Part shown: one piece after another, positions 600 through 60,848 of the stretch
Layout of the letters: each line of letters starts with the position of its first letter
Numbering within the stretch: the stretch's first letter is position 1
DNA from: Escherichia phage EcS1
Sequence record: NC_055721.1
DNA: 64,000 bases
Direction: 5' to 3' (one strand)
Made by a program: the position numbers and the translations under genes
Notes under the pieces: model-generated
What the model was told of the DNA's origin: nothing
What the model saw: only the letters and a program-made list of their open reading frames with translations
Database searches by the model: none

Positions 600-633
600 A
601 AAAAAAAGGGAACCATATGGTTCCCTTTTTTTG
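598..633. terminator. Bidirectional intrinsic terminator (A-run, GGGAACC-ATAT-GGTTCCC, T-run)
   Basis: Perfect 7-bp stem with 4-nt loop flanked by A10 and T8, between convergent genes 24-like and rnlB. Confidence 0.8.
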
Positions 634-636
634 TTT

Positions 637-1641
637 TTATACTACTTCATGCCATTTTTCACGAATGGTAGCCATTACTATTTGCTGAAGTTCTTTCTTA
701 ACTAAGTTCGGTTGGTCAGCATCGATAAGTACGATACCTTCACGTTCTGCTTCGACAAAAATATCTTGCATAGTAAGACCCATTACCTTACCGAAGTCTT
801 TAGCTGTCACTTCACCAATATGACTCAAAACGTTGGACACACGGTTCCAGGTACTATATTCAGCTAATGTAGACAGTGCAACCTTATCTTGGTCGCTTAA
901 TACCGCAGCCGGCTTAATAGGCTTATCAGATTTAGCCTTTTCACTGAACTTAGAGTTCTTACATTTAATAGCAACACGATTACCGTTAGCTAAAATCACT
1001 GGATAACAAGGCTTCAGAACATAGCCTTCTGCGATATTCTTTTCACCATGAGGCAAGAAACCAAAGTGAGCTATGTTAGCATATTCAATACCGTTGGCCA
1101 CAGCAAGTTCATTATAATGATTAACTACAGAATCAAAGTCATTAACTAACTGAGATAATTCTTCGAAAGAGCCACGAGCTATTAGTGGTGCTACTTTAAA
1201 ACCAAAGGTACAGCACATACGTTCAACCATGAAATCATCAGCATAAGTGCCTTCTTGGTCGTGTTCTGACTTAATTAAGATATCGAATACGTAGAAGTCT
1301 TTCTCACCGTAATCCATACCTTTTTGAATTCCACCACCTGCGAACTCGCCGAAAATTTGATACGAAGATGCTGTACCACAGATAGAGTCTTGAAGAAACT
1401 TAATAGACTTATCATATTTCTTCATAATAATTTCATGAGCAAAGAAACTTTCACCGGGCAGAATAGGTCCTGTCCGCTTACACGGAGTGACTGCGTCACG
1501 ACTAATAATTAGAGAGAAGTTTGTACCATGAATCTTTTCACGTGCTACCCATACGCCAGTGTCATTACCAGAGAAACGAATCTTCTCGATGAACTTACCG
1601 TTGTAATGATTCTCTAAAGAGGAGTACTTTTCAAATGTCAT
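637..1641 (-). CDS. rnlB: RNA ligase 2 (Rnl2)
   Basis: 334 aa, same length as T4 Rnl2; N-terminus and KIHGTNFS lysine-adenylation motif closely match T4 gp24.1 as recalled; position after gene 24. Confidence 0.9.
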
Positions 1642-24287: not shown

Positions 24288-24611
24288 TTAACCAACAAAC
24301 TTAACCAGATGTTCCATCTTCATTCCATTAAAGGAAACCAGTTTGTCGATGCTAAAGCCACGCCATTGTTTGATTTCAGTATCAAATGCTGGAACCATAT
24401 CTACAGCTTCTTTACGAGGCTTACTAGGATTCACATAGCTTTCATAGATTGCAGGGTCAACCAGTTTACCAATTACATCTTTATCACGAGAAGCTTTCAT
24501 TACACGCATGGTGCCATCAGCTTTTTCAAAGACTACTTCAGAAGTACCCATTGCCAGTTTAGTTTTCAAGACTTCACGCAGAGCTACTTTTTGATCTTCA
24601 GTTAATTTCAT
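24288..24611 (-). CDS. Hypothetical protein (31.1-like)
   Basis: 107-aa ORF between cd and 31. Confidence 0.4.
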   Translation of the reverse strand: MKLTEDQKVALREVLKTKLAMGTSEVVFEKADGTMRVMKASRDKDVIGKLVDPAIYESYVNPSKPRKEAVDMVPAFDTEIKQWRGFSIDKLVSFNGMKMEHLVKFVG

Positions 24612-25163: not shown

Positions 25164-25507
25164 TAAATCACCAAGTAAGTTGAGCGTTTAGTAGAAACCA
25201 ATTTTAGTCCTTCAATTGGTTCGACAATATTCTTTACAGTACCAATTGTGATGAATTCTGCATCTTTAAAACGATTCTTTTTATCGTTAAAGACTGTACC
25301 CATGTATTGGTAACCTAATTCTACGCCATGATTGTTTACAGCAATCAATACTGCATCATATTCTTCATCAGGGACCATTGAGACTGCGTGGTCCATACGC
25401 AGTTCGGTTAACACTTCATCGATGCCTTTTTGAGATACTTCACCACGTATACCAATCAAGTTCGCACGAAGAATTTTATCAATCTTTTCTTTTAGCATAT
25501 TGATCAA
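25163..25507 (-). CDS. Hypothetical protein downstream of and overlapping DAHP synthase gene
   Basis: 114-aa ORF overlapping the DAHPS 3' end by 29 nt; no confident motif. Confidence 0.4.
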   Translation of the reverse strand: MINMLKEKIDKILRANLIGIRGEVSQKGIDEVLTELRMDHAVSMVPDEEYDAVLIAVNNHGVELGYQYMGTVFNDKKNRFKDAEFITIGTVKNIVEPIEGLKLVSTKRSTYLVI

Positions 25508-26489
25508 TCTCTGTTAGAGTTTTAACTGTTTGTTCCCAGCCGATGCAAGCATCAGTCACTGAAACACCATACTTCATGTCACGAGAAATTTTCTGAGAAC
25601 CTTCGTTCAGATGAGATTCTATCATAAAACCTTTAACTAATTGGAAACCTGCTTTCAATACTTCTTTAGCTACGCCTGGTTGACGCGTGAAGTCTTTTTC
25701 ACTGTTCGAGTGTGAGCAGTCAACCATAACTGATTGGTTCACACCTGCGTGATACAGGTCGTCTAAGACATCAACAATATCGTCTTCATGATAGTTAGGA
25801 CCCTTATCACCGCCACGTAGAACGATGTGAGTGTTCTTATTGCCTACGGCATGAACGATACCTACGTTTCCGTTGTTATCCATACCTAAGTAACGGTGTG
25901 GGAACGCAGCAGATTTCATAGCATCAATAGCTACTTGAGCAGAACCATTTGTTCCATTCTTGAAGCCAACACACATAGGCAGACCTGAAGCGATTTCACG
26001 GTGTGTCTGTGATTCAGTCGTACGAGCGCCGATAGCAACCCATGAGAAAATACCACTAAGATACTTAATCGTGAATGGGTCAAGCACTTCAGTCGCTAAT
26101 GGAAGGCCAATATCTAAAAGGTCTAAACATAAACGACGAGCACAATGAAGACCATAGTTCAAGTCAAATGTGTCGTTCAAATGTGGGTCATTTACATAAC
26201 CTTTCCAACCTACAGTCGTACGAGGCTTTTCAAAATAAACACGCATAACTAACAATACGTCAGGCAATTGTTTTTGCAATTCAGCCAGACGTTGGCCATA
26301 TTCTAAAGCAGCTTTAGGGTCATGAATAGAACATGGACCCACTACAACAAGCTTACGATGGTTTTCGCCACACATAATGCGATTAACTTCTTCGCGATGT
26401 TTTTCTACTTGTTCTTTATGTCCTGCATGAAATGGAAGTTCACGAGCAAGTTCATTAGGCGAATACAACTGTTCTACAACCAAATTCAT
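25479..26489 (-). CDS. 3-deoxy-D-arabino-heptulosonate-7-phosphate (DAHP) synthase, class I (AroG/AroF/AroH-like)
   Basis: Colinear with E. coli AroG as recalled: GPCSIHD, MRVYFEKPRTTVGWKG, GARTTESQTHRE, GFKNGT, ILRGG, ESHLNEG, TDACIGWE. Confidence 0.9.
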   Translation of the reverse strand: MNLVVEQLYSPNELARELPFHAGHKEQVEKHREEVNRIMCGENHRKLVVVGPCSIHDPKAALEYGQRLAELQKQLPDVLLVMRVYFEKPRTTVGWKGYVNDPHLNDTFDLNYGLHCARRLCLDLLDIGLPLATEVLDPFTIKYLSGIFSWVAIGARTTESQTHREIASGLPMCVGFKNGTNGSAQVAIDAMKSAAFPHRYLGMDNNGNVGIVHAVGNKNTHIVLRGGDKGPNYHEDDIVDVLDDLYHAGVNQSVMVDCSHSNSEKDFTRQPGVAKEVLKAGFQLVKGFMIESHLNEGSQKISRDMKYGVSVTDACIGWEQTVKTLTEIDQYAKRKD

Positions 26490-26720: not shown

Positions 26721-27182
26721 TTAACCCCAGTAGAACGAATAGCGTACAAAGAGCTTTTCACTTAAATCAAGTTCAAGATCAAAGTCTACTTTAAAGGAGG
26801 AATAAGTAACATCTAATTTAAAGTTAGTATCTTTAAGCAGAATATTCAGTACACCTGCAACTTCACCATGAATTTGTGCCTGAGTTCCAGGCTCATTAAT
26901 GTTTTCATAGAGATGATTAGAAATAACCTGTTTAACAACCAGTTCTAAGACTTCAGTGTAACGTGGGAACTGAGAAGACTTATCTTCATCCATAAAGCTA
27001 TTAATGAATTCCAGAGCTTGGTTTAAATTCACATGACCTGAATAAAAGCGTTCACGTGTTGTACGGTTAATAGCTACAATATAAGCTTTATCAACTGATG
27101 CTGTTTCATCAATATTAAAAGCAAATTTATTTTGCTTTTCTACAAGTGATTTAGCACCATATAAGGTTTCAAAGGTAATCAT
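26721..27182 (-). CDS. Hypothetical protein
   Basis: 153-aa ORF in the cd.x-like variable region. Confidence 0.4.
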   Translation of the reverse strand: MITFETLYGAKSLVEKQNKFAFNIDETASVDKAYIVAINRTTRERFYSGHVNLNQALEFINSFMDEDKSSQFPRYTEVLELVVKQVISNHLYENINEPGTQAQIHGEVAGVLNILLKDTNFKLDVTYSSFKVDFDLELDLSEKLFVRYSFYWG

Positions 27183-27382
27183 AGGTAATTTTCCTCTACG
27201 TATTTGAATACGCTTTTGTGTGTAAAGTGTCCACCATCAACAGTCTCTTCAGTATCGTAATCACGAATATCTAAAGCAACACCGTCTTCATTATGATGGA
27301 CAACAAAGATGAAACATTTACGTTCTTCGATTTCTTCAATCAAATCGTAGAGCTCACTAATATCTTCTAAATAGTCACACAT
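27179..27382 (-). CDS. Hypothetical acidic small protein
   Basis: 67-aa ORF overlapping pseT stop. Confidence 0.35.
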   Translation of the reverse strand: MCDYLEDISELYDLIEEIEERKCFIFVVHHNEDGVALDIRDYDTEETVDGGHFTHKSVFKYVEENYL

Positions 27383-28281
27383 TAAAAGTCACCATGAGCC
27401 ACTTGCCAACATTCAACACCGATACGACGCCACATTTCTACTACCTGTGCACGGTCATCGACAGCCAGAACTACATCATAATCTTGGACAATATCGTTCC
27501 AGAAGATTTCTTCTTTCACAACGTCATCTTTACGTGGGTCGCCTTGCTTGCGCTGGAAATGCTTTTCAGTCTGAATCATGTTTTCGTTTAGCCAATTGAT
27601 AGTAGCCACACGATGTTTCAGAGGCTCATCTTTGTTACCTGATTCACGTCCAGAGACGGTAAGGATTTTAAACCCTTGTTGTTGCAGCAATTTAAGAAGC
27701 AGTACAACCATCTCACGAGGAGTATCGTCACAGAGCTTATCAAGGTCGTAAGGAGAGCGGTGTTCGTTATCGGCTAATGTTCCATCAAGGTCAAAGATAA
27801 CCGCTTGAGGGCGCCCTTCAGGATAATCAGCGGATACATATTTCATTGGAACAGACATCTTAGCGTACATAGAACGTAAGACATCAATTGGAACAGCCTT
27901 TTCACCACGATACTGGTTACGTTTCAGAAGCTCGGTCCATGGAATATCAAAACGTTCGATTTCAAGCTTAGTTTCATGTTTAACAGAGAATTCTTGCCAC
28001 ACTTTCAGAGTAGTAGGGTTCAAGTTCGTATCGGCAATGATTACGCCTTTACATCCATCAAGAGCTAACAATGTTTGAGCTGAAGAGAATTGTACTTTAG
28101 AGACAGCTTTCTCTTTTTGCTTTGTATATTTGTATTGGTTACGATATTCGAGCCCAAACAACTTTTCACGGAAGTCATCACGTGACAGGATATAGAAGCC
28201 AGGGTTCTTAGCAACATATTCATTAGCCCAAGTAGTTTTACCTGAACCTGGAGCACCTTGAGTCAAAATAATCTTTTTCAT
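27382..28281 (-). CDS. pseT: Polynucleotide kinase / 3'-phosphatase
   Basis: Near-colinear with T4 Pnk as recalled: P-loop GAPGSGKTT, phosphatase DLDGTLA, C-terminal VVEMWRRIGVECWQVA. Confidence 0.9.
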   Translation of the reverse strand: MKKIILTQGAPGSGKTTWANEYVAKNPGFYILSRDDFREKLFGLEYRNQYKYTKQKEKAVSKVQFSSAQTLLALDGCKGVIIADTNLNPTTLKVWQEFSVKHETKLEIERFDIPWTELLKRNQYRGEKAVPIDVLRSMYAKMSVPMKYVSADYPEGRPQAVIFDLDGTLADNEHRSPYDLDKLCDDTPREMVVLLLKLLQQQGFKILTVSGRESGNKDEPLKHRVATINWLNENMIQTEKHFQRKQGDPRKDDVVKEEIFWNDIVQDYDVVLAVDDRAQVVEMWRRIGVECWQVAHGDF

Positions 28282-28490
28282 TCTTTCACCAATGATTTAA
28301 TAAAGTCTTGGAGTTCTTTAGAAGCACGACCCCAGTTTTCATGATATCTTAAAGTATGCGCTTCTAAAATAGAAGCCATTTTATGAGAATCACATGATTG
28401 CTGTCGTTCTAGGTGCCGGCCATAAATTGTTGCTCTGACTTCTGATTCATAAATCAGCCCACGAAGTTGCTCTAGATGTTCAAGAGTCAT
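28278..28490 (-). CDS. Small protein, member of a tandem paralogous family (P3)
   Basis: Shares MTLE.., GL(F/I).(A/E), G.H.., MAS with 28480-28662 ORF. Confidence 0.4.
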   Translation of the reverse strand: MTLEHLEQLRGLIYESEVRATIYGRHLERQQSCDSHKMASILEAHTLRYHENWGRASKELQDFIKSLVKE

Positions 28491-28662
28491 TAGTCACCTG
28501 TAGCTCTACAAAAGTCATTAAGGCGGTTCTAGCCGAGCTTGCCATGCCGTATAGCTCTTGAACACGTGAGCTACGCATATGCAAACCTAAATTCAAAGCG
28601 CGTTGTGCCTGTTCATAAGCTTCAAACAGCCCTTTCCATACGTTATATTGTTCAAGAGTCAT
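28480..28662 (-). CDS. Small protein, tandem paralog (P2)
   Basis: See P3; overlapping start/stop arrangement. Confidence 0.4.
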   Translation of the reverse strand: MTLEQYNVWKGLFEAYEQAQRALNLGLHMRSSRVQELYGMASSARTALMTFVELQVTNDS

Positions 28663-28898
28663 AGTTTGTCAATCTCATTGAATATATTAAGCAAAGTTTT
28701 GTTAAGTTCGTATTCACTTAAATCGATTTCTTCAATTCCGTCTTTACGGCTAATAGACCCAGACCGAATACGATTAGTGGTTATCTGATTAACCCCGCCT
28801 GTGCATTTTGCACTTTCACATAAAGAGTACATCTTTGCTTTTAATTGAGTTTTTAGGTCCGGCGAATTAATCATATGTACAAAATCAAGACCAGTCAT
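28659..28898 (-). CDS. Hypothetical small protein
   Basis: 79-aa ORF. Confidence 0.35.
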   Translation of the reverse strand: MTGLDFVHMINSPDLKTQLKAKMYSLCESAKCTGGVNQITTNRIRSGSISRKDGIEEIDLSEYELNKTLLNIFNEIDKL

Positions 28899-29064
28899 AA
28901 CTTAATTCCTTATACAAAGCTTCGCGAGCAGCCTTAAGTTCTTTGGCTGATTCATATGCACATTTATCGTCGATTAATGACATTGCAACTTGTGTCTGAC
29001 GTTGACCATGTAGTTTGGCTTTGAGTTCATAAGCTGCAAACAAATCTTTCAATTTATCATTCAT
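28885..29064 (-). CDS. Small protein, tandem paralog (P1; 59 aa, not in ORF track)
   Basis: Manually translated: MNDKLKDLFAAYELKAKLHGQRQTQVAMSLIDDKCAYESAKELKAAREALYKELSYDWS; resembles P2/P3. Confidence 0.4.
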   Translation of the reverse strand: MNDKLKDLFAAYELKAKLHGQRQTQVAMSLIDDKCAYESAKELKAAREALYKELSYDWS

Positions 29065-29558
29065 ACGTCAAGTTCCTTATACAAGTCTTCACGAGCTTCT
29101 TTCAGAATTTTACCTGTTTCGCGTAAGAATGGTTCTACTTTTTCACCAGTAACGCGTCCAGAATTAACTAATGATAAATGACGACCATGACGTAAAGCAG
29201 CTTGTTCAAAGGCATGAACAATACTACGCTTACGGTCTCGTTCAAGGACTTCTTCTTCGAAGATAGGATAGTCATTAACAGAAGACATAATGGAGTACCA
29301 ATCGCGTAAAGGAATCTGAGTTTCTTCGTTCAGTTCAAATGTACGATCTACTGTATCACTATTAGGCGAATAGTATTCTACACGATGGACCATATCGCCA
29401 CCGTCTGTGAGATGCCAGATATAACAAAATGTTGCTTTCTTTTCAAGAGGTGTACGAATACAAGAACCAAGCTGCATAAGCTTACGAAGCTCAGCATTTT
29501 TGATTTTGGTAAGACGTTCAGGTGAAGAGACAAAACTGTTATAACGTGGAGCAGCCAT
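29061..29558 (-). CDS. Hypothetical protein (pseT.1-like position)
   Basis: 165-aa ORF; GAGGA RBS; preceded by UUCG hairpin. Confidence 0.4.
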   Translation of the reverse strand: MAAPRYNSFVSSPERLTKIKNAELRKLMQLGSCIRTPLEKKATFCYIWHLTDGGDMVHRVEYYSPNSDTVDRTFELNEETQIPLRDWYSIMSSVNDYPIFEEEVLERDRKRSIVHAFEQAALRHGRHLSLVNSGRVTGEKVEPFLRETGKILKEAREDLYKELDV

Positions 29559-29587
29559 AATAATATCCTCAAATTTAATTATCCCAT

Positions 29588-29603
29588 AGAGCCCGAAGGC
29601 TCT
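29588..29603 (-). promoter_or_regulatory. Intercistronic UUCG-tetraloop hairpin (AGAGCC-UUCG-GGCUCU)
   Basis: Plus AGAGCCCGAAGGCTCT. Confidence 0.55.
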
Positions 29604-29760
29604 AAGATTTTAAAATCAGTTTAATAGCTTTATATGCAAAGATTAATATCATACCAAATGCTATTAAGCCAGTCATACCACTAGCACAACCAACGCTGCA
29701 ACGCATGCAAGCAGAGCAACAACCAATCCTGCACAAAACAATGTAGCGCCTAAAGTCATT

Positions 29761-30057
29761 TTACTTTTCACACTTCACTTCCTTCAAAGGAGCTCGATAA
29801 TAACAAATGACACCGTTAGCATCTTTTACATAACGATTAACGTCATTCAACCATACTCTAAATTCCTGTGATTCATTATATGGCATTCCTACGAAAGCAA
29901 CACCATCAATCACTTTAACTTGCCATTGACCTGTCCAAGGTTTAATCGGGTCAGGCCAACTTGGGTCAACACGTTGCACAGGTTGTAGCTCAGGGACACT
30001 CTGGGAGCATCCAACCAAAAAGATAGATAAACATATGGCTAGAGATTTAAGTTTCAT
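29761..30057 (-). CDS. Outer-membrane spanin lipoprotein (o-spanin; T4 pseT.3 equivalent)
   Basis: Signal peptide with lipobox LVGC; overlaps the upstream i-spanin gene; position next to pseT. Confidence 0.7.
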   Translation of the reverse strand: MKLKSLAICLSIFLVGCSQSVPELQPVQRVDPSWPDPIKPWTGQWQVKVIDGVAFVGMPYNESQEFRVWLNDVNRYVKDANGVICYYRAPLKEVKCEK

Positions 30058-30410
30058 CTGGTCGCCTCCTGCATATCCTGAGCGAACTTATTGAAGCTGT
30101 CATTGATTTGTTTCTCAACCAATTTAGGCTTCTTAGCTACTGTATCACTTCTTTTTGCGTCTGTAAACATCTTAGCATCAGACGTATCTCTTGCTAGACG
30201 ATTTGCCTTACGTTCATCATCTAAAGCACTAAGACGAGTGAATCCATCTTTCAAATCTGTTATCTGCTTATCTTGTTCTTTAACAGTTTGTTCAACATGA
30301 GTTAAAGATTCTTTTAAGTTATCGATACGGGCTTCTTGAATCTTTACAAAAGCAAAGACACTAAGAACACCTAGTATCAACAACATGTATCCACCATTTA
30401 TAGTAGGCAT
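30054..30410 (-). CDS. Inner-membrane spanin (i-spanin; T4 pseT.2 equivalent)
   Basis: N-terminal TM helix followed by charged coiled-coil-like region; 4-nt overlap with the o-spanin gene. Confidence 0.7.
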   Translation of the reverse strand: MPTINGGYMLLILGVLSVFAFVKIQEARIDNLKESLTHVEQTVKEQDKQITDLKDGFTRLSALDDERKANRLARDTSDAKMFTDAKRSDTVAKKPKLVEKQINDSFNKFAQDMQEATR

Positions 30411-30904
30411 AATTTAACGATTGTCTCAAAGATATCGTCTTGAGTCATATTGTTGATAAGAATATGATGGGGTGAATCAGAAGCTGAAATCTTAAAGCAA
30501 GTTTCAACCATTGAAGCCATTTCGTCAGCAGTTAAACGAGAATGCTGGATTCCAAGACGATGATTACCATAGATTGGGTCAACAATAATGTAACATTTGT
30601 TGCCACTCAGATGGACATTAGGCTGGCTGATGTTAATGAACACTTCAGCGCCATATTTACCCAACTGGTTTTCAAGGAAGCTCTTCATTTCTTCTACTGC
30701 GTCAGGCATAGCATCACGACGAGCTTCAGTGACTTTGTTGTTGTATTCTTTTTGCTTTTTACGTTTAGAAAGATTACGTGCCATGGCAATACGAAGATCG
30801 GTGATGTAACCAATAGTCTTAGAACCTTTAAAGATACTGATTCCATCATGACGATCACCGTATTGAGCCATAACCATTTCATTTGTAATAAGTTGCATAT
30901 TCAT
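30398..30904 (-). CDS. alc: Probable Alc (host transcription shutoff protein) by synteny and size
   Basis: 168 aa from ATG 30904 (T4 Alc 167 aa); between rnlA and spanins as in T4; sequence not verified. Confidence 0.45.
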   Translation of the reverse strand: MNMQLITNEMVMAQYGDRHDGISIFKGSKTIGYITDLRIAMARNLSKRKKQKEYNNKVTEARRDAMPDAVEEMKSFLENQLGKYGAEVFINISQPNVHLSGNKCYIIVDPIYGNHRLGIQHSRLTADEMASMVETCFKISASDSPHHILINNMTQDDIFETIVKLCLL

Positions 30905-30933
30905 TTTAATATCCTCATTTTGTTGGTAGGAGA

Positions 30934-30962
30934 ATCTTATCACAACAAAATGAGGATGTAAA
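30934..30962 (-). promoter_or_regulatory. Early promoter (-35 TTTACA, 17 bp, -10 TAAGAT) inside 13-bp inverted repeat
   Basis: Arms CCTCATTTTGTTG (30913-30925) and CAACAAAATGAGG (30943-30955); the downstream arm contains the alc SD (GAGG). Confidence 0.55.
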
Positions 30963-32135
30963 CTACTCTTGTTCGATTACAATTTCTTTCTTATATTCGT
31001 CTGGAACGAAGAACTTGTGATTCTTGTTAAAAGCTTCGTTAAGCTGTGGAATTAACTTATCTAGGTCTAAACCACCTGTGAACGCTTTCATCAGAATTGG
31101 GAACAGATAAGAACGGTCTGCATCTTTAAAGATTGTTTGAGCAGAGATAGCGAAGTCTTTACGGTCACGACCAGCTAGTTGCTTATAAGTTGTTTGAACT
31201 AAGTCTAATGCATGACGCAAGAACTCTAAATGAATAGTTTCAAACTTATCAATCTTAGTGATAGCCCATTCATCGCCTGCGAACATAGAACGAAGGTCAT
31301 CAGAACCACCAGACACGACAGATTCGAAGAGAGCTTCGTTTTTAGTGATGGAATCTTTAGTACGATGCAAAGCAACATACCAATCAGTTTTGAGCTTAAA
31401 GTTCAAACCGTTTTCCATTACAAAAACATAACCTTCTACACCTTCTTTGGCGCGAATGCCAGGCACAAATCGTTCATCGGCAGGAACATTAAATGCTTCT
31501 ACCAAATGAGGACGAAGCATTGCATCTTTAAACAATTCTTCATATGGAACATATTCACCAGTCTTATTTTCACGAACATTCAGAAGAATCAGGTCACGTT
31601 TACTATAAGCCAGAACGATACGGTTATCTGGTGCAACGTATTCCATGTTACAAGTGAAGCCATCTTTAGTAAGTTGAGTCACACGTTTCAAGAATTTTTC
31701 ATAACGTGGACCATTGATAACTTGTAGTGCTGCATAAGCTTGTTCAGAAGAAATAGAAGCCTTAGACTTCAAGAACAGTTGGTCGTTATCTACAAAGCTA
31801 GAGATTAGAGAACCATCAGCCTTATCCATCATCAATTTGATTTTAGTAAGGTCCAAGTTCATGGTAAATGGAGTTTCATCTAAGTTAAAGAATTTTTCCA
31901 TCGGACGAGCTGCAATACGAGTAGGCTTACCATCGACCATTTCAAACATAATGCCGCGGCACTCTAGAGCGTCAGGCAGAAGCCAATCAGAGTAAGATGC
32001 ATAGTTATAACTGAAGATACGATACTCACCACCAAACGGCGTCTGGTAGTCACGGAAATAGAATTTAGACTGGTCTTTTGGGTCAGTCAATTTCATCAGG
32101 TTTTTGTACAAATCATGTTCTTGTTTAGTAATCAT
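30963..32135 (-). CDS. rnlA: RNA ligase 1 (tRNA repair)
   Basis: Matches T4 gp63 as recalled: YRIFSYNYASYSDWLLPDALECRGIMFEM, RPMEKFFNL, adenylation motif KADGSL. Confidence 0.9.
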   Translation of the reverse strand: MITKQEHDLYKNLMKLTDPKDQSKFYFRDYQTPFGGEYRIFSYNYASYSDWLLPDALECRGIMFEMVDGKPTRIAARPMEKFFNLDETPFTMNLDLTKIKLMMDKADGSLISSFVDNDQLFLKSKASISSEQAYAALQVINGPRYEKFLKRVTQLTKDGFTCNMEYVAPDNRIVLAYSKRDLILLNVRENKTGEYVPYEELFKDAMLRPHLVEAFNVPADERFVPGIRAKEGVEGYVFVMENGLNFKLKTDWYVALHRTKDSITKNEALFESVVSGGSDDLRSMFAGDEWAITKIDKFETIHLEFLRHALDLVQTTYKQLAGRDRKDFAISAQTIFKDADRSYLFPILMKAFTGGLDLDKLIPQLNEAFNKNHKFFVPDEYKKEIVIEQE

Positions 32136-32545
32136 TTCTTAACCTTGTGCTGGACATTCCAGGGTGGATTGAATAGTTTAATGAACATCGGTTCTTCAAG
32201 GTCCATAGTGGCAACGGACATTGTGCCTAATTCGTTTGTCATGCTCAAATTAAAACATTGACGTGCGTAGAAGTCTACTTTCTTGTTATCCATCAAAGCT
32301 TCATGAATAAACACTGATTTAGTAGAATCACTAGTTGGATTGCTTCGATTTATAGCTGTACGATAATAATTGATTCGTTTACGTAAGTTTTTTGTCTTAC
32401 CAATATACACTAATTCATCATCTACAGCAATTGCATAGATTACGTTTGATTTATTTGGAACTGAAAGTAGTTCAATTTCTCCATTATTATTCATTTCGAG
32501 TGAAGCATATTTTATAAAAGAAAATTCATCTGCGAATGGTTTCAT
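32132..32545 (-). CDS. denA: Endonuclease II
   Basis: Near-colinear with T4 DenA as recalled (VIYAIA..DELVYIGKTKNLRKRINYYRTAINR, YARQCFNLSMTNELGT, FIKLFNPPWN). Confidence 0.85.
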   Translation of the reverse strand: MKPFADEFSFIKYASLEMNNNGEIELLSVPNKSNVIYAIAVDDELVYIGKTKNLRKRINYYRTAINRSNPTSDSTKSVFIHEALMDNKKVDFYARQCFNLSMTNELGTMSVATMDLEEPMFIKLFNPPWNVQHKVKK

Positions 32546-32554
32546 TACGATAAA

Positions 32555-32568
32555 GGGGCCGAAGCCCC
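32555..32568 (-). promoter_or_regulatory. Intercistronic UUCG-tetraloop hairpin (GGGGC-UUCG-GCCCC) between nrdB and denA
   Basis: Plus GGGGCCGAAGCCCC. Confidence 0.55.
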
Positions 32569-32573
32569 ATCCT

Positions 32574-33752
32574 TTAGAGATATTTACGGAAGTCGGTTAG
32601 AACGCTCTCGTCTACGTCGTTATCAATCTGTGCTACAAGATAAGAAGACAAATCGACTTCTTGTGGAGCAGACTGAACCATATCACTATTTAAGTATTCG
32701 CGAATCCAAGATAATGGATGACGTACAGGAGCATCCTTAATTGGACAAGGGAGTCCACAAGAATTCATACGTGATACTGTGAGGTAGTCAATAAAGTCGC
32801 TCAGGATTTTAACGTTTAACCCAGGCATACCACCATTACGGAACAAGTGGACGGCCCACTCTTTTTCCTGGCGGTTGACTTCCATGAAAATATCTACTGC
32901 TTCTTGTTCACACTCTTTAGCAATTTCTACCCATTCATCACCGTCAGTACCCATCTGCCATTGACGAATAATGAATTGGGTCCCTTTAAGGTGAAGCTGT
33001 TCATCACGGGCAATGAACTTCATAATCTTACTGTTGCCTTCCATGATTTCCATATTCTTATGGAAGTTGAAAGTACAAGCGAAAGATACATAAAAACGTA
33101 TTGCTTCAAGGGCATTGATAACATGCATGCACAAATAGAGCGCTTTCATCAAGTTGTGTTTAGCAATTTCTTCAGATTGTTCAGCAACACAGTATGAATC
33201 ATAATCGTTACCTTGGACTTTATACCACTTTGTTTCTTCTTTAGCATTTTCCCACAAGCGGGTTTTAGTCAGAACATCATCATAATAAACACCAATAGAT
33301 TCTGCACGTTTCATGATGGCTTCATCAAGAACGATTTCATCAAAAATCTTAGTTGGATCATTAAACAGGTTACGCATTATGTGTGTATATGAACGAGAGT
33401 GAATTGTTTCACTGAACGTCCAGGTCTGGTTCCAAGTATCAAGACTTGGGTCAGAAATCAGAGCAGATAATACTGCTGCTGGTGCACGACCTTGGATGGT
33501 ATCAAGCAATGATTGATACTTCAGGTTGTTGATGAATATTTCTTTTTGGTGTTCTGGGAGCTTTTCATATTGAGCACGGTCCATCATCAGGTTAACTTCT
33601 TCAGGCCGCCAAAAAAACGATAACTGCTTTTCAATTAGGTCTTCAAATGTTTTATGATGCTGGATGTCATAACGGGCAATACTTAGTCCTGAACCCAAGA
33701 ACATTGGTTCATTCAAGACATCTACTTGTTCTTTATTAAAAACTGTACTCAT
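32574..33752 (-). CDS. nrdB: Ribonucleotide reductase small subunit (class Ia), uninterrupted
   Basis: 392 aa (T4 NrdB 388); ferritin-like composition; adjacent to nrdA; no intron gap. Confidence 0.85.
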   Translation of the reverse strand: MSTVFNKEQVDVLNEPMFLGSGLSIARYDIQHHKTFEDLIEKQLSFFWRPEEVNLMMDRAQYEKLPEHQKEIFINNLKYQSLLDTIQGRAPAAVLSALISDPSLDTWNQTWTFSETIHSRSYTHIMRNLFNDPTKIFDEIVLDEAIMKRAESIGVYYDDVLTKTRLWENAKEETKWYKVQGNDYDSYCVAEQSEEIAKHNLMKALYLCMHVINALEAIRFYVSFACTFNFHKNMEIMEGNSKIMKFIARDEQLHLKGTQFIIRQWQMGTDGDEWVEIAKECEQEAVDIFMEVNRQEKEWAVHLFRNGGMPGLNVKILSDFIDYLTVSRMNSCGLPCPIKDAPVRHPLSWIREYLNSDMVQSAPQEVDLSSYLVAQIDNDVDESVLTDFRKYL

Positions 33753-33937
33753 AAGGTGTAAGTCCTGTTTAGCATTTCAGGTGTCATTATTTGGGCTTTG
33801 CGTTCTTGTTCCATCTTTTCAGACAATTTAGCAAACGAGCGTTTTAATCGTTTAGTATATTCAGCTTTAAATTCAGGGTCTTTTAAAAGAAGATGATATG
33901 CTTCAATATCATAGTCAATCATTTTTAACTTCCTCAT
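33749..33937 (-). CDS. Hypothetical small protein between nrdA and nrdB
   Basis: 62-aa ORF. Confidence 0.35.
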   Translation of the reverse strand: MRKLKMIDYDIEAYHLLLKDPEFKAEYTKRLKRSFAKLSEKMEQERKAQIMTPEMLNRTYTL

Positions 33938-34118
33938 ATCTGAAATCTACGCTAGTGTATTCTTTAGGTGCAAAGGCTGTACCAATCCTGATACCTTCTA
34001 GCATATTGTATAATGCAGAATGTTCGTTACGTTTGATTGGTACAGATTTTAATTTTGCTATGGTAAATAAACGCTCATTTTGTCGTGAAAATTTGATATA
34101 GATTTTGTATTCTTTCAT
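33915..34118 (-). CDS. Hypothetical small protein between nrdA and nrdB
   Basis: 67-aa ORF. Confidence 0.35.
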   Translation of the reverse strand: MKEYKIYIKFSRQNERLFTIAKLKSVPIKRNEHSALYNMLEGIRIGTAFAPKEYTSVDFRYEEVKND

Positions 34119-34156
34119 TTTGTTTTTCTCAGAAGGACATCCGTGTCCTCATTATA

Positions 34157-36418
34157 TCAAAGTTTACAAGAAGAGCAATCTTCTTCTTTTGGAACTTCGA
34201 TTTCATAATCATCAGTACCAGAACCATCACGAGTATTATGATAGTAAGCTGTCTTACCACCGAAGTACCACAGATGAAGCATATCATCCATCATGACTGA
34301 CATCGGAACCTTACCTTTAGGGTAGTTCTGTGGGTCATAGTACATGTTAGTAGAAATAGACTGACATACGAATTTCTGCATAATTGCTACTTGATTCAAG
34401 TAACCTTTATTACCAGATTTCGCTAACTTCCAAGCATAATCATAAAGATCAACATTAGTATCAACATTAGGCACAACTTGGTTAAAGGAACCTTCTTTCG
34501 ATTCTTTAACACTTACAGGCCCACGTGGCGGCTCGATACCATTAGTGCTATTTGATACCTGGCTCGAAGATTCACAAGGCATGAGCGCGGATAAGGTACT
34601 GTTACGGATACCGTAACTTCTGAGGTCTTCCCGCAACTGTTCCCAGTCACAAACGTACGATGGGGCTGCGAGTTGGTCAATCTTTTTATTGTACCAGTCG
34701 ATAGGTAACTCGCCTCTAGACCAACGAGTGTCTGAATAATACTCGCAATGGCCTTTTTCTTTCGCTAATTTGACTGATGCTCTGATGAGTGCATATTGAA
34801 GTCTTTCCATCATTTCGTGAGTTAAATCGTTTGCATCATTATATGATGCAAAGTTATCAGCTAACCAAGCAGCATAGTTCGTGATACCAACACCGAGTGC
34901 ACGACGTTTTTTAGCTTTCAAAGCTTCCGGGACAGGATAACCTTGATAGTCTAATAAATTATCTAAAGCACGAACTTGTACTTCGGCTAATTCGTTAATT
35001 TCGTCTTGGTTCTGCCAATCGAAGTTACCGAGTACATAAGCAGATAAAGTGCAAAGTGCGATTTCTGGGTCTTCACCACCAACGTCTTTAGTAGGAAGCG
35101 CGATTTCACAGCACAAGTTTGATTGCTTAACCGTAGCCACATCACGAATAAAAGGACCATACTCACCGACGTTATCTACAAAGTAAGGGTAAATACGAGC
35201 CGTACCTGAACGTTCAGTAAAGAACAATTCGAAGAGCTCGCGAGCTTTAATTCGTTTCTTACGAACCGTAGGATCTTTTTCTAAAGCTTCATAGAAATTA
35301 CGGAACTTCAGAGGGTCAGCAAAATACGCTTCGTAAAGTTCGCCTTTCATGATGTCAGGACTGAACAACGTGATGTAATCATTTTTAACCAAACGTTCAA
35401 ACATCAGGTCATTAATCTGAACACCATAGTCTAGATGACGAATACGGTTTTCATCTACACCTTTGTTGTTCTTCAGAACTAACAGGTTTTCCACTTCAAG
35501 ATGCCATATCGGATAATACAACGTTGCTGCACCACCACGTACGCCACCTTGTGAACAACTCTTCACTGCGGTTTGGAAATGTTTCCAGAATGGAATCACC
35601 CCAGTATGTTTGACTTCACCATGACCAATCTTAGAACCTTCAGCACGAATCATACCACCATTAATACCAATACCAGCACGTTTACTGATATAACGAATAA
35701 TAGCTTCTGCACCTTTGTTAATTGATGTCAGTGAATCACCACTTTCAATAACAACACAAGAACTAAACTGACGAGTTGGAGTACGAACACCTGCCATAAT
35801 AGGAGTAGGCAACGAAACCTTACGAGTTGAAACAGCATCATAAAAACGAACTACGTTCTTAATACGATGTTCACCATCATCTTGGTGCAAACACATACCG
35901 ATAAGCATGAATGCAAATTGAGGCGTTTCATAAATCTTGCCAGTTGAACGATCTTTGACTAGGTATTTTTCGATTAACTGCATCGTACCAGCATAAGTGA
36001 ATTCAAAGTCACGGTCGTGTTTGATTTGAGATTCAAACAACTGGATTTCTTCTGCAGACCATTTGCTTAGGATTTCGGTGTCATAAAGACCTGCGTTAAC
36101 TACTGAAGAGATGTGGTCGATAAACCGAGGTGGTTCGAATTGATTGAAAACATCTTTACGAAGACCAAACATAGCTAGATTACTTGCTACATATTGATAA
36201 TCTGGTTCGTCAACTGTAATACGGTTAGCAGCAACTTTAATAACTGCTTTATGAATTTCTTTAGTGGTCATTCCATCACGCAGATGACTTTTAACTTCTT
36301 CATAAAGGTCATAAGGGTTAACGGCTATAGATGTACTTGCGCACGACCATTCAAGGACTTGGATGATTTTACTTGGTGTAAAATCTTGACTAACGCCTGA
36401 ACTTTTTATTACTTGCAT
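34157..36418 (-). CDS. nrdA: Ribonucleotide reductase large subunit (class Ia)
   Basis: Start at MQVIKSSGVSQ (T4 NrdA starts MQLINVIKSSG); active-site NLCCEI; ~753 aa. Confidence 0.9.
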   Translation of the reverse strand: MQVIKSSGVSQDFTPSKIIQVLEWSCASTSIAVNPYDLYEEVKSHLRDGMTTKEIHKAVIKVAANRITVDEPDYQYVASNLAMFGLRKDVFNQFEPPRFIDHISSVVNAGLYDTEILSKWSAEEIQLFESQIKHDRDFEFTYAGTMQLIEKYLVKDRSTGKIYETPQFAFMLIGMCLHQDDGEHRIKNVVRFYDAVSTRKVSLPTPIMAGVRTPTRQFSSCVVIESGDSLTSINKGAEAIIRYISKRAGIGINGGMIRAEGSKIGHGEVKHTGVIPFWKHFQTAVKSCSQGGVRGGAATLYYPIWHLEVENLLVLKNNKGVDENRIRHLDYGVQINDLMFERLVKNDYITLFSPDIMKGELYEAYFADPLKFRNFYEALEKDPTVRKKRIKARELFELFFTERSGTARIYPYFVDNVGEYGPFIRDVATVKQSNLCCEIALPTKDVGGEDPEIALCTLSAYVLGNFDWQNQDEINELAEVQVRALDNLLDYQGYPVPEALKAKKRRALGVGITNYAAWLADNFASYNDANDLTHEMMERLQYALIRASVKLAKEKGHCEYYSDTRWSRGELPIDWYNKKIDQLAAPSYVCDWEQLREDLRSYGIRNSTLSALMPCESSSQVSNSTNGIEPPRGPVSVKESKEGSFNQVVPNVDTNVDLYDYAWKLAKSGNKGYLNQVAIMQKFVCQSISTNMYYDPQNYPKGKVPMSVMMDDMLHLWYFGGKTAYYHNTRDGSGTDDYEIEVPKEEDCSSCKL

Positions 36419-36470: not shown

Positions 36471-37229
36471 ATGAAATCAGGCATTTATAGAATAATTAAC
36501 ATTAATAATAACAAATCTTACGTTGGCAGCACTATAGACTTCCAAGCAAGATGGAAACGACATTTTTCGGATTTGAAGAACGGGTGTCATTCTTCAATCA
36601 AACTCCAACGTTCATACGATAAACATGGTAAAGATTCATTCGTTTGTGAAATAGTTGAGCAGACTCCATATGATGAATCTATAATTTCATTAGAAGATTA
36701 TTATATCATCTATTTTGATTCAAAACAAAACGGATATAATATTGCTAACGCAGCATTTGGCGACACTTTATCGCACCACCCTAACAAAGAAGAAATATTT
36801 AAGAAAATAAGCATTTCTCTTAGAGAAAACAATGAAAAACTTTCTGAAGAAGAAAGGAAAAATAAATTTGGAAGTAAAAGTTGTAAGAAAGGTAAAAGCT
36901 ACGAAGAATTTTACGGAGCTAAAAAGGCTCAAGAAATAGGTCTTAAACTTTCAGAAAGCAATTATAATAGACAAATGTCTGGAACTAATAATCCATTCTT
37001 TGGTAAGACACATAGTGACGAAGTTAGAAAGAGAATTTCTGCCACACAGAAAGGACGTAAGAAACCTCATGTTAAATTAAGTATAGAAGGAACTATTTAT
37101 CAATCAGTGGCAGAAGCAATGAAAGCCACAAATCTTTCTCGTAAAGTTATAGAAAGACGTTGTGGCTCTGAATTATTCATAGATTGGTTTAGACTTCATA
37201 TAGCCATTTTACCTTTAATTGGAGGGTGA
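36471..37229 (+). CDS. Free-standing GIY-YIG homing endonuclease (I-TevI/Seg-like)
   Basis: N-terminal GIYRIININNNKSYVGST...RWKRH GIY-YIG module; repeated basic NUMOD-like linker (GKTHSDEVRKRIS); opposite strand to flanking td and nrdA; 3' end overlaps td 3' end. Confidence 0.85.
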   Translation: MKSGIYRIININNNKSYVGSTIDFQARWKRHFSDLKNGCHSSIKLQRSYDKHGKDSFVCEIVEQTPYDESIISLEDYYIIYFDSKQNGYNIANAAFGDTLSHHPNKEEIFKKISISLRENNEKLSEEERKNKFGSKSCKKGKSYEEFYGAKKAQEIGLKLSESNYNRQMSGTNNPFFGKTHSDEVRKRISATQKGRKKPHVKLSIEGTIYQSVAEAMKATNLSRKVIERRCGSELFIDWFRLHIAILPLIGG

Positions 37230-60243: not shown

Positions 60244-60378
60244 TTTAAAATCCTAGTAATGAACCGATGTTTAGTATAACATCAAATAAGAATAGCATAA
60301 TAGAAATAACTCCATAAGATATCCCTATACATATTGCCAAAAAGAGCACCACAAGGGTGTCCATAATAGTTGTTAGTT

Positions 60379-60537
60379 TCATGAATTAGCGTGTCTAATC
60401 CAACCACAGAAAGAAGAAATAACCCAAACGATTAAGAATCCACCAATTGCAAAGGCCGAAGGAACCCATGCACCAGCGAAATACATTGTTGTCATAATGA
60501 TAGCTAAAATAAATTCAAGAAAATAAATTAAGACCAT
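60379..60537 (-). CDS. Small hydrophobic membrane peptide (52 aa), one of four tandem tiny ORFs (ac-like region)
   Basis: Manually translated MVLIYFLEFILAIIMTTMYFAGAWVPSAFAIGGFLIVWVISSFCGWIRHANS; not in ORF track. Confidence 0.3.
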   Translation of the reverse strand: MVLIYFLEFILAIIMTTMYFAGAWVPSAFAIGGFLIVWVISSFCGWIRHANS

Positions 60538-60661
60538 GATTAATCCTTGATACTTAGTAAGAGAATCAATGCCAAAGAACCTTGAGCTACACTTTGCGAA
60601 ATTACAGTAGCTTCACCAGTATGAAGAGTCCAGAAACATAGACCAGCCCAAATGCAAGCAC

Positions 60662-60825
60662 AAATACCTTTTACCATTTAATCACCCCACAGAGAATAGC
60701 TAGACGTTCGAAGCCGATAAATGCAACACTAAAACAAATAACGGCAACAACGGTAGAAGTAACTGGGAGACCTGCCCATAAGAAGGTTCCCATACAAGTC
60801 ATAACGGCTGTCATAAAAAGATAGC
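60662..60825 (-). CDS. Small hydrophobic membrane peptide (~54 aa)
   Basis: Manually translated MLLGYLFMTAVMTCMGTFLWAGLPVTSTVVAVICFSVAFIGFERLAILCGVIKW; coordinates approximate. Confidence 0.3.
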
Positions 60826-60848
60826 CTAATAGCATTATATCTCGCATA

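Follow-up and report, generated by a model that had tools for sequence, protein, structure and literature searches.

RNA repair enzymes Pnk, Rnl1 and Rnl2 of T4 type, with conserved catalytic residues, in Escherichia phage EcS1

The three enzymes in comparison with T4 and Winklervirus

In the classical pathway of phage T4, the nuclease PrrC cuts tRNA-Lys, Pnk (PseT) heals the ends and Rnl1 (RnlA, gp63) seals them (PMC3014915). The reversal of the PrrC cut by these two enzymes is credited to Amitsur et al. 1987, as cited in PMC12409363. The initial annotation of the DNA described here started from this repair of nuclease-cut tRNA, which PMC3014915 confirms for T4. The present analysis concerns the corresponding genes of Escherichia phage EcS1 (NC_055721.1), namely the orthologues of pseT, rnlA (gene 63) and rnlB, the last coding for Rnl2. 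They lie at two loci in a stretch of 64,000 nucleotides (nt), referred to below as the window. It is very probable that the three genes are functional orthologues of the T4 genes which came down by vertical inheritance, standing in the ancestral order of the Tevenvirinae, and that their presence would be a property of the whole group, arising from several uses, and not a signal of the host.

The window is a T4-like segment (Straboviridae, Tevenvirinae) with the genes in T4 order. The closest genomes are found in the genus Winklervirus (Serratia phages X20 and CHI14, Erwinia phage Vettismorki), whose hosts belong to Serratia and Erwinia, and they show the same order at both loci. In the window span, the DNA of X20 shows 79% identity over 57%. 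In respect to the amino acid (aa) sequences, Pnk is 85% identical to its counterpart in X20 and 86% to that in Vettismorki, Rnl2 is 83% identical to the X20 RNA ligase 2, and the identity of Rnl1 to X20 and CHI14 is about 71.5%. The gp32 protein shows 90% identity to the closest Winklervirus records. Judged by these comparisons, the phage is a new relative of the genus Winklervirus. The gene set had been called not novel, and it is indeed ordinary and well understood; what is new is the phage, as a member of a group already known.

The domains of the three proteins were assigned in a Pfam profile scan, which took in 33 open reading frames (ORFs) of the window. The kinase part of Pnk (residues 1-~150) contains the PF13671 AAA_33 domain (residues 5-144, E=7e-20), followed by the phosphatase domain PF25109 HAD_PNKP (residues 158-299, E=6e-54, model positions 1-143/143). 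In the case of Rnl1, the nucleotidyltransferase domain PF09511 RNA_lig_T4_1 (residues 58-253, E=2e-22, model positions 1-227/227) precedes the C-terminal domain PF20819 T4_Rnl1_C (residues 260-381, E=6e-48, model positions 1-122/122). Rnl2 consists of the adenylyltransferase domain RNA_ligase (residues 31-227, E=3e-22) and the C-terminal domain PF18043 T4_Rnl2_C (residues 249-323, E=7e-17). Among solved structures, the best match of each protein is the respective T4 enzyme, aligned nearly end to end: 1LTQ for Pnk (E=2e-103), 2C5U/5TT6 for Rnl1 (E ~1e-121, with the alignment reaching the end of 2C5U) and 2HVQ for Rnl2 (E=2e-123). The global identities to the T4 enzymes are 55, 50 and 61% for Pnk, Rnl1 and Rnl2, respectively. 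The three matches are far beyond what chance can account for. A literature search for the code of PDB entry 9DO4 (an 'RNA ligase 1' chain) gave nothing relevant.

Every catalytic residue examined is kept in all three enzymes. In Pnk, the P-loop GAPGSGKT occupies residues 9-16, with K15 kept and T16 in place of S16 of T4; serine and threonine are standard alternatives in the Walker A motif, and X20 Pnk also has threonine at this position. The alignment to T4 shows that D35, R38 and R125 (T4 R126) are kept on the kinase side. On the phosphatase side, the DLDGT motif is found at residues 164-168 (D164 and D166 correspond to T4 D165 and D167), along with R176, R213, D254, K258, D277 and D278 in T4 numbering. 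Both RNA end activities, 5'-kinase and 2',3'-cyclic/3'-phosphatase, are accordingly predicted for this protein. In Rnl1, motif I is K105-A-D-G (T4 K99, KADG), with T4 positions D101 and G102 kept, and motifs III, IV and V are represented by E165, E234-G235, K247 and K249 (T4 E159, E227-G228, K240 and K242); T4 positions R54, K75, F77 and K119 are present as well. In Rnl2, motif I is K36-I-H-G-T-N (T4 K35, KIHGTN), with T4 positions H37, T39 and N40 kept, while R56, E99, F119, D120, E205, K226 and K228 match T4 R55, E99, F119, D120, E204, K225 and K227. This ligase also keeps T4 positions F65, F66 and K209, the Rnl2/REL signature residues Y5, R33, K54, Q106, D135, R155 and S170 (T4 numbering), and, in the C-terminal domain, which nick sealing requires, R267 and D293 (T4 R266 and D292). 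The only changes at the examined positions are S16T in the P-loop of Pnk and K189I in Rnl2. Position 189 was dropped as a catalytic site, as it is variable (T in X20, I in the window). The intact catalytic motifs asserted in the initial annotation are thus borne out, and the disruption of motifs on alignment, named there as evidence to the contrary, was found in none of the three enzymes.

The T4 enzymes are defined both biochemically and structurally, and the mechanism can be drawn from orthology to them. A cut by a metal-independent ribonuclease leaves a 2',3'-cyclic phosphate on one RNA end and a 5'-OH on the other. In Pnk, the C-terminal HAD domain would remove the 2',3'-cyclic or 3'-phosphate via an aspartyl-phosphate on the first Asp of DLDGT, and the N-terminal P-loop domain would phosphorylate the 5'-OH. 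Rnl1 would then be adenylylated on the lysine of motif I (K105), transfer AMP to the 5'-phosphate and seal the break; its C-terminal domain, which is all-helical in T4 Rnl1 and confers tRNA specificity there, would direct the enzyme to broken anticodon loops of tRNA. Rnl2 would follow the same three-step chemistry (on K36), but with a preference for nicks in double-stranded RNA.

The likeness to T4 extends to the size of the proteins and the position of the genes. Pnk has 299 residues (301 in T4) with the kinase followed by the HAD phosphatase and the active-site residues kept, and pseT takes the same position, downstream of alc and the spanins; the differences, S16T and two single-residue deletions, comprise nothing of functional note. 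Rnl1 shares with T4 motifs I, III, IV and V and the C-terminal domain, and its gene lies directly downstream of denA, the rnlA start overlapping the denA stop (ATGA). This protein is longer than that of T4 (390 and 374 aa), with ~6 residues more at the N-terminus and 9 more at the C-terminus, which are common to X20, and its C-terminal domain is less similar to T4 (38.5% identity) than the catalytic one (53%). Rnl2 has 334 residues in both phages, with the signature residues and the C-terminal domain, and rnlB adjoins gene 24 and hoc. At this locus X20 differs, having a gene for a hypothetical protein of 183 aa between rnlB and gp24, where the window has a hairpin only. The synteny nrdA-nrdB-denA-rnlA-alc-spanins-small ORFs-pseT and gp24-rnlB-hoc is the same as in T4 and in the annotation of X20 and Vettismorki.

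The ratios of nonsynonymous to synonymous substitution rates (dN/dS), calculated by the Nei-Gojobori method in pairwise comparison with Serratia phage X20 only and approximate owing to dS values near saturation, are 0.12 for pnk, 0.15 for rnl1 and 0.13 for rnl2. They are similar to those of nrdB (0.11) and denA (0.10), which agrees with the description of the genes as retained, in the sense of purifying selection. Larger values are observed for alc (0.26), the 165-aa ORF (0.35) and the 70-aa ORF (0.66). Within Rnl1, the ratio rises from 0.08 in the N-terminal leader (84% identity) through 0.14 in the catalytic domain (73%) to 0.20 in the C-terminal domain (residues 260-381, 60%), and no other part of the three enzymes diverges as much as this domain. 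With a pairwise dN/dS of 0.20, it shows no sign of positive selection at the resolution of this comparison.

These data leave next to no probability for one or more of the three genes being a decaying remnant, inactive, or a misannotated chance ORF. None of the three ORFs is truncated, each being colinear with its T4 protein over the full length, and the dN/dS values of 0.12-0.15 are not those of decaying genes. As for the two substitutions, S16T of Pnk is conservative and shared with X20, and residue 189 of Rnl2 varies in X20. Nothing was found in favor of decay, which is effectively refuted.

Table 1. Positions of the RNA repair genes, their neighbors and other features in the window
Feature	Position	Strand	Length	Remarks
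pseT orthologue (Pnk)	27382..28281	-	299 aa	ATG start; Pfam and T4 structure match
rnlA (gene 63) orthologue (Rnl1)	30963..32135	-	390 aa	ATG start; Pfam and T4 structure match
rnlB orthologue (Rnl2)	637..1641	-	334 aa	ATG start; Pfam and T4 structure match
alc (host transcription inhibitor)	30398..30904	-		PF17527 ALC, E=2e-49, residues 14-179
i-spanin (T4 pseT.3 equivalent)	30054-30410	-		phrog_739 'Rz-like spanin', E=2e-31
o-spanin lipoprotein (T4 pseT.2 equivalent)	29761-30057	-	98 aa	phrog_812 'Rz-like spanin', E=4e-39; lipobox LVGCS
Small ORFs, function not assigned	28278..29759	-	70, 60, 79, 59, 165, 28 aa
Three-ORF insertion	28480-29064	-	60, 79, 59 aa	packed, start/stop overlaps of 4-14 nt
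Hydrophobic peptide	29673-29759	-	28 aa	MTLGATLFCAGLVVALLACVAALVVLVV
TTG ORF	29602-29736		44 aa	other frame than the hydrophobic peptide; probably spurious
Palindromic hairpin	601..632	.		14-pair perfect stem AAAAAAAGGGAACC-ATAT-GGTTCCCTTTTTTT, A7/T7 flanks; consensus scan
UUCG-loop hairpin, then T-run	32555-32568	-		between nrdB and denA
Second UUCG hairpin	~29586-29601
Homing-endonuclease-like ORF	36471-37229	+	252 aa	GIY-YIG / NUMOD3 / I-TevI-DNA-binding
DAHP synthase	25479-26489	-	336 aa	PF00793, E=4e-80
Four very hydrophobic ORFs	60245-60847	-	45, 52, 45, 58 aa	consecutive
WYL_2 ORF	24288-24611	-	107 aa	Sm-like SH3 barrel, E=1e-12

Distribution among phages and reasons for retention

Homologues of the three proteins were searched with tblastn in 50,697 phage records, and were found in 2,542 records for Pnk, 1,825 for Rnl1 and 1,429 for Rnl2. 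Tallied by organism name, the counts in the different host genera track those of the core protein gp32 (Table 2). In the case of Synechococcus there are 378 gp32 records, while this name is absent from the top-ten organism tallies for Pnk, Rnl1 and Rnl2. Outside the cyanophages, T4-like phages thus normally carry the trio, irrespective of their host. Since the counts follow gp32 across host genera, the trio is a lineage-wide trait, and it carries almost no information on the phage's own host.

Table 2. Phage records with homologues of the three enzymes and of gp32, by organism name
Organism name	Pnk	Rnl1	Rnl2	gp32
Escherichia	756	635	555	631
Klebsiella	409	287	278	324
Shigella	91	83	79	89
Acinetobacter	69	69	92	71
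Enterobacter	62	56	55	59
Aeromonas	80	77	46	80

The initial annotation held that the genes are kept due to hosts carrying anticodon nucleases of the PrrC/RloC type, and that their presence reports the host defences met by the phage. We consider this unlikely as an explanation, although a role in defence as such is documented: T4 mutants in pnk and rli are restricted only on prr+ hosts (PMC3014915), disruption of the PseT orthologue of phage Bas37 lowers the fitness in some uropathogenic E. coli isolates in comparison with K-12 (bioRxiv 10.1101/2025.11.20.689424), and the tRNA-cutting defences are by now many, including PrrC, Cas13a, Retron-Eco7, PARIS and RemAIN (PMC12409363). Purifying selection on pnk, rnl1 and rnl2 is also in line with it, and the phage has both enzymes of the anti-PrrC circuit, Pnk for healing and the tRNA-specific Rnl1 for sealing. 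However, a set of genes that is near-universal in T4-like phages of many host genera is not specific to this phage or its host, and its retention could be due to the other roles of Pnk and Rnl1; the implied selection by nuclease-carrying hosts does not follow from homologue counts that run parallel to gp32. Rnl2 falls outside the established answer of Pnk and Rnl1 to PrrC, and its inclusion in an anti-nuclease toolkit is not upheld; we know of no established role of this ligase in vivo, nor of one against anticodon nucleases. A tblastn search of the window with T4 Stp, a query of only 26 aa, gave a best match of E=0.04 inside a large ORF and no convincing candidate for an Stp-like activator peptide; this is a weak negative, and the gene could lie beyond the window. 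The host-dependent role of PseT is real, yet it is not inferable from gene presence alone.

The toolkit had also been called complete, which says too much. The label is questionable, as is the use of RloC as a test nuclease for repair by Pnk and Rnl1, because RloC removes the wobble nucleotide, a damage cited as 'tRNA repair-defying' (PMC7824862). This point also speaks against RloC-type hosts as the cause of retention. RlaP nucleotidyltransferases have been proposed to restore such lost nucleotides, and different ligases have been suggested to serve different RNase damage (PMC7824862). No nucleotide-restoring enzyme was found: the Pfam scan of 33 window ORFs gave no RtcB, RlaP-type, 2H or KptA-type domain. 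No tRNA genes were found in the window.

The other roles of the enzymes allow a different account, in which the genes are kept mainly for housekeeping, with Rnl1 acting as gp63 in tail-fibre attachment, Pnk in mRNA decay, and tRNA repair being secondary. Pnk would in this case make early mRNAs cut by RegB ready for RNase E/G and PNPase, and both of its activities do help to degrade RegB-cut phage mRNAs (PMC3014915). In T4 rnlA, on E. coli K-12, transposon insertions are tolerated in the C-terminal domain and not in the N-terminal one (bioRxiv 10.1101/2025.11.20.689424), which suggests that Rnl1 is needed for something other than tRNA repair. The weaker constraint on the C-terminal domain of the window Rnl1 (60% identity against 73 and 84%, dN/dS of 0.20 against 0.14 and 0.08 in the remaining parts) fits the dispensability of this domain for T4 on K-12. 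In the Winklervirus relatives, Rnl1 carries the annotation 'RNA ligase and tail fiber protein attachment catalyst'. To our knowledge, tail-fibre attachment by Rnl1 needs no ligase chemistry, but all the ligase catalytic residues are kept; moreover, the C-terminal domain is clearly under purifying selection (0.20) and gives a full Pfam match (E=6e-48). Housekeeping is also not exclusive of a role in repair. As the main cause of retention it is conceivable, but less likely than not. We prefer the view of an inherited, group-wide trio, which probably reflects several uses together: tRNA repair, phage mRNA turnover and tail-fibre attachment.

A few points weigh against this preferred view. The function is assigned by homology to T4 at 50-61% identity, and the lists of essential residues of T4 Pnk, Rnl1 and Rnl2 are those which we take to follow from the T4 mutational and structural work. 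The dS to X20 of 0.8-1.3 makes the dN/dS values approximate, and the comparison with gp32 is one of summary counts by organism name and not a genome-matched table. A specific pressure of anticodon nucleases on this phage may also exist.

Only two items are mildly unusual, namely the insertion of three orphan ORFs next to pseT and the fast evolution of the C-terminal domain of Rnl1. They leave room for a more specific scenario, which we regard as improbable, with either this domain retuned to other broken host tRNAs or the insertion providing a new accessory or anti-defence function. If true, the retuned domain would indicate a different tRNA-cutting defence in hosts of the Erwinia/Serratia type, and the function of the orphan three-gene insertion would share the early transcription unit with pseT. 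The dN/dS of 0.20, however, suits relaxed constraint equally well. In general, the finding of standard T4 heal-and-seal enzymes with intact motifs in a Winklervirus-like phage is useful for annotation and matters little alone. The suggestion that the trio gives context for the host defences met by this phage is not sustained: a group-wide trait with two members having other jobs is unusable as a marker of the defences of one host.

Surrounding genes and other features of the window

The span from the pnk stop to the rnl1 start (27382-32135) had been labelled as an RNA repair toolkit as a whole, which is too broad, as the two RNA repair enzymes comprise 2,073 of its 4,754 bases (44%), and the rest is formed by alc, two spanins and seven small ORFs (Table 1). 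Translation of alc likely begins with the ATG codon of residue 14 in the listed GTG ORF; the gene is found at the same place in X20 and Vettismorki. Among the small ORFs, those of 70 and 165 aa belong to phrog_2347 and phrog_4482, respectively. The hydrophobic peptide of 28 aa, which begins 2 nt past the o-spanin stop, is conserved in X20, and its counterpart in Vettismorki is annotated as a hypothetical protein of 33 aa.

The three packed ORFs of the insertion are located between the 70-aa and the 165-aa ORFs, and are absent from the Winklervirus relatives X20 and Vettismorki. The DNA of the insertion matches none of the 50,697 phage records, nor did tblastn give a match for the 79-aa ORF. 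The other two show similarity to their neighbors: the 59-aa ORF to the C-terminal end of the adjacent 165-aa protein (phrog_4482 positions 107-161, E=3e-8; 34% over 56 aa), and the 60-aa ORF to the first part of the 70-aa ORF (36% over 42 aa). From these similarities, the insertion looks like a local duplication together with an orphan gene, in a variable spot.

The order of genes in the window is the C-terminus of gp24, rnlB, a Hoc-like protein, UvsW, an Alt-like ADP-ribosyltransferase, DNA ligase and gp30.7/30.8, and, further on, dCMP deaminase, DAHP synthase, pseT, the small ORFs, the spanins, alc, rnlA, denA, nrdB, nrdA, td, frd and gp32. From nrdB to pseT all the genes are on a single strand and tightly packed, with frequent ATGA overlaps. 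A scan for sigma-70-like promoters stayed at chance level, with 23 sites in 27000-34300 (23.1 in shuffles) and 8 sites in 1-2500 (7.8 in shuffles). The palindromic hairpin lies between the convergent gp24-like ORF (+) and rnlB (-), and is likely a bidirectional terminator, which would end the rnlB transcript. Two UUCG hairpins are listed in Table 1.

Between nrdA and td, the ORF resembling a homing endonuclease lies on the opposite strand and overlaps the start of nrdA by 14 nt and the end of td by 34 nt. The td gene is uninterrupted, and the Rfam scan of the window gave no match, group I introns included. The DAHP synthase, an enzyme of the aromatic amino-acid pathway, is coded between dCMP deaminase and pseT and is also present in X20 and Vettismorki. 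The WYL_2 ORF adjoins dCMP deaminase. The four hydrophobic ORFs are located downstream of a gp52-like topoisomerase subunit, and may code for a group of small membrane proteins at the place that ac/52.1 has in T4.

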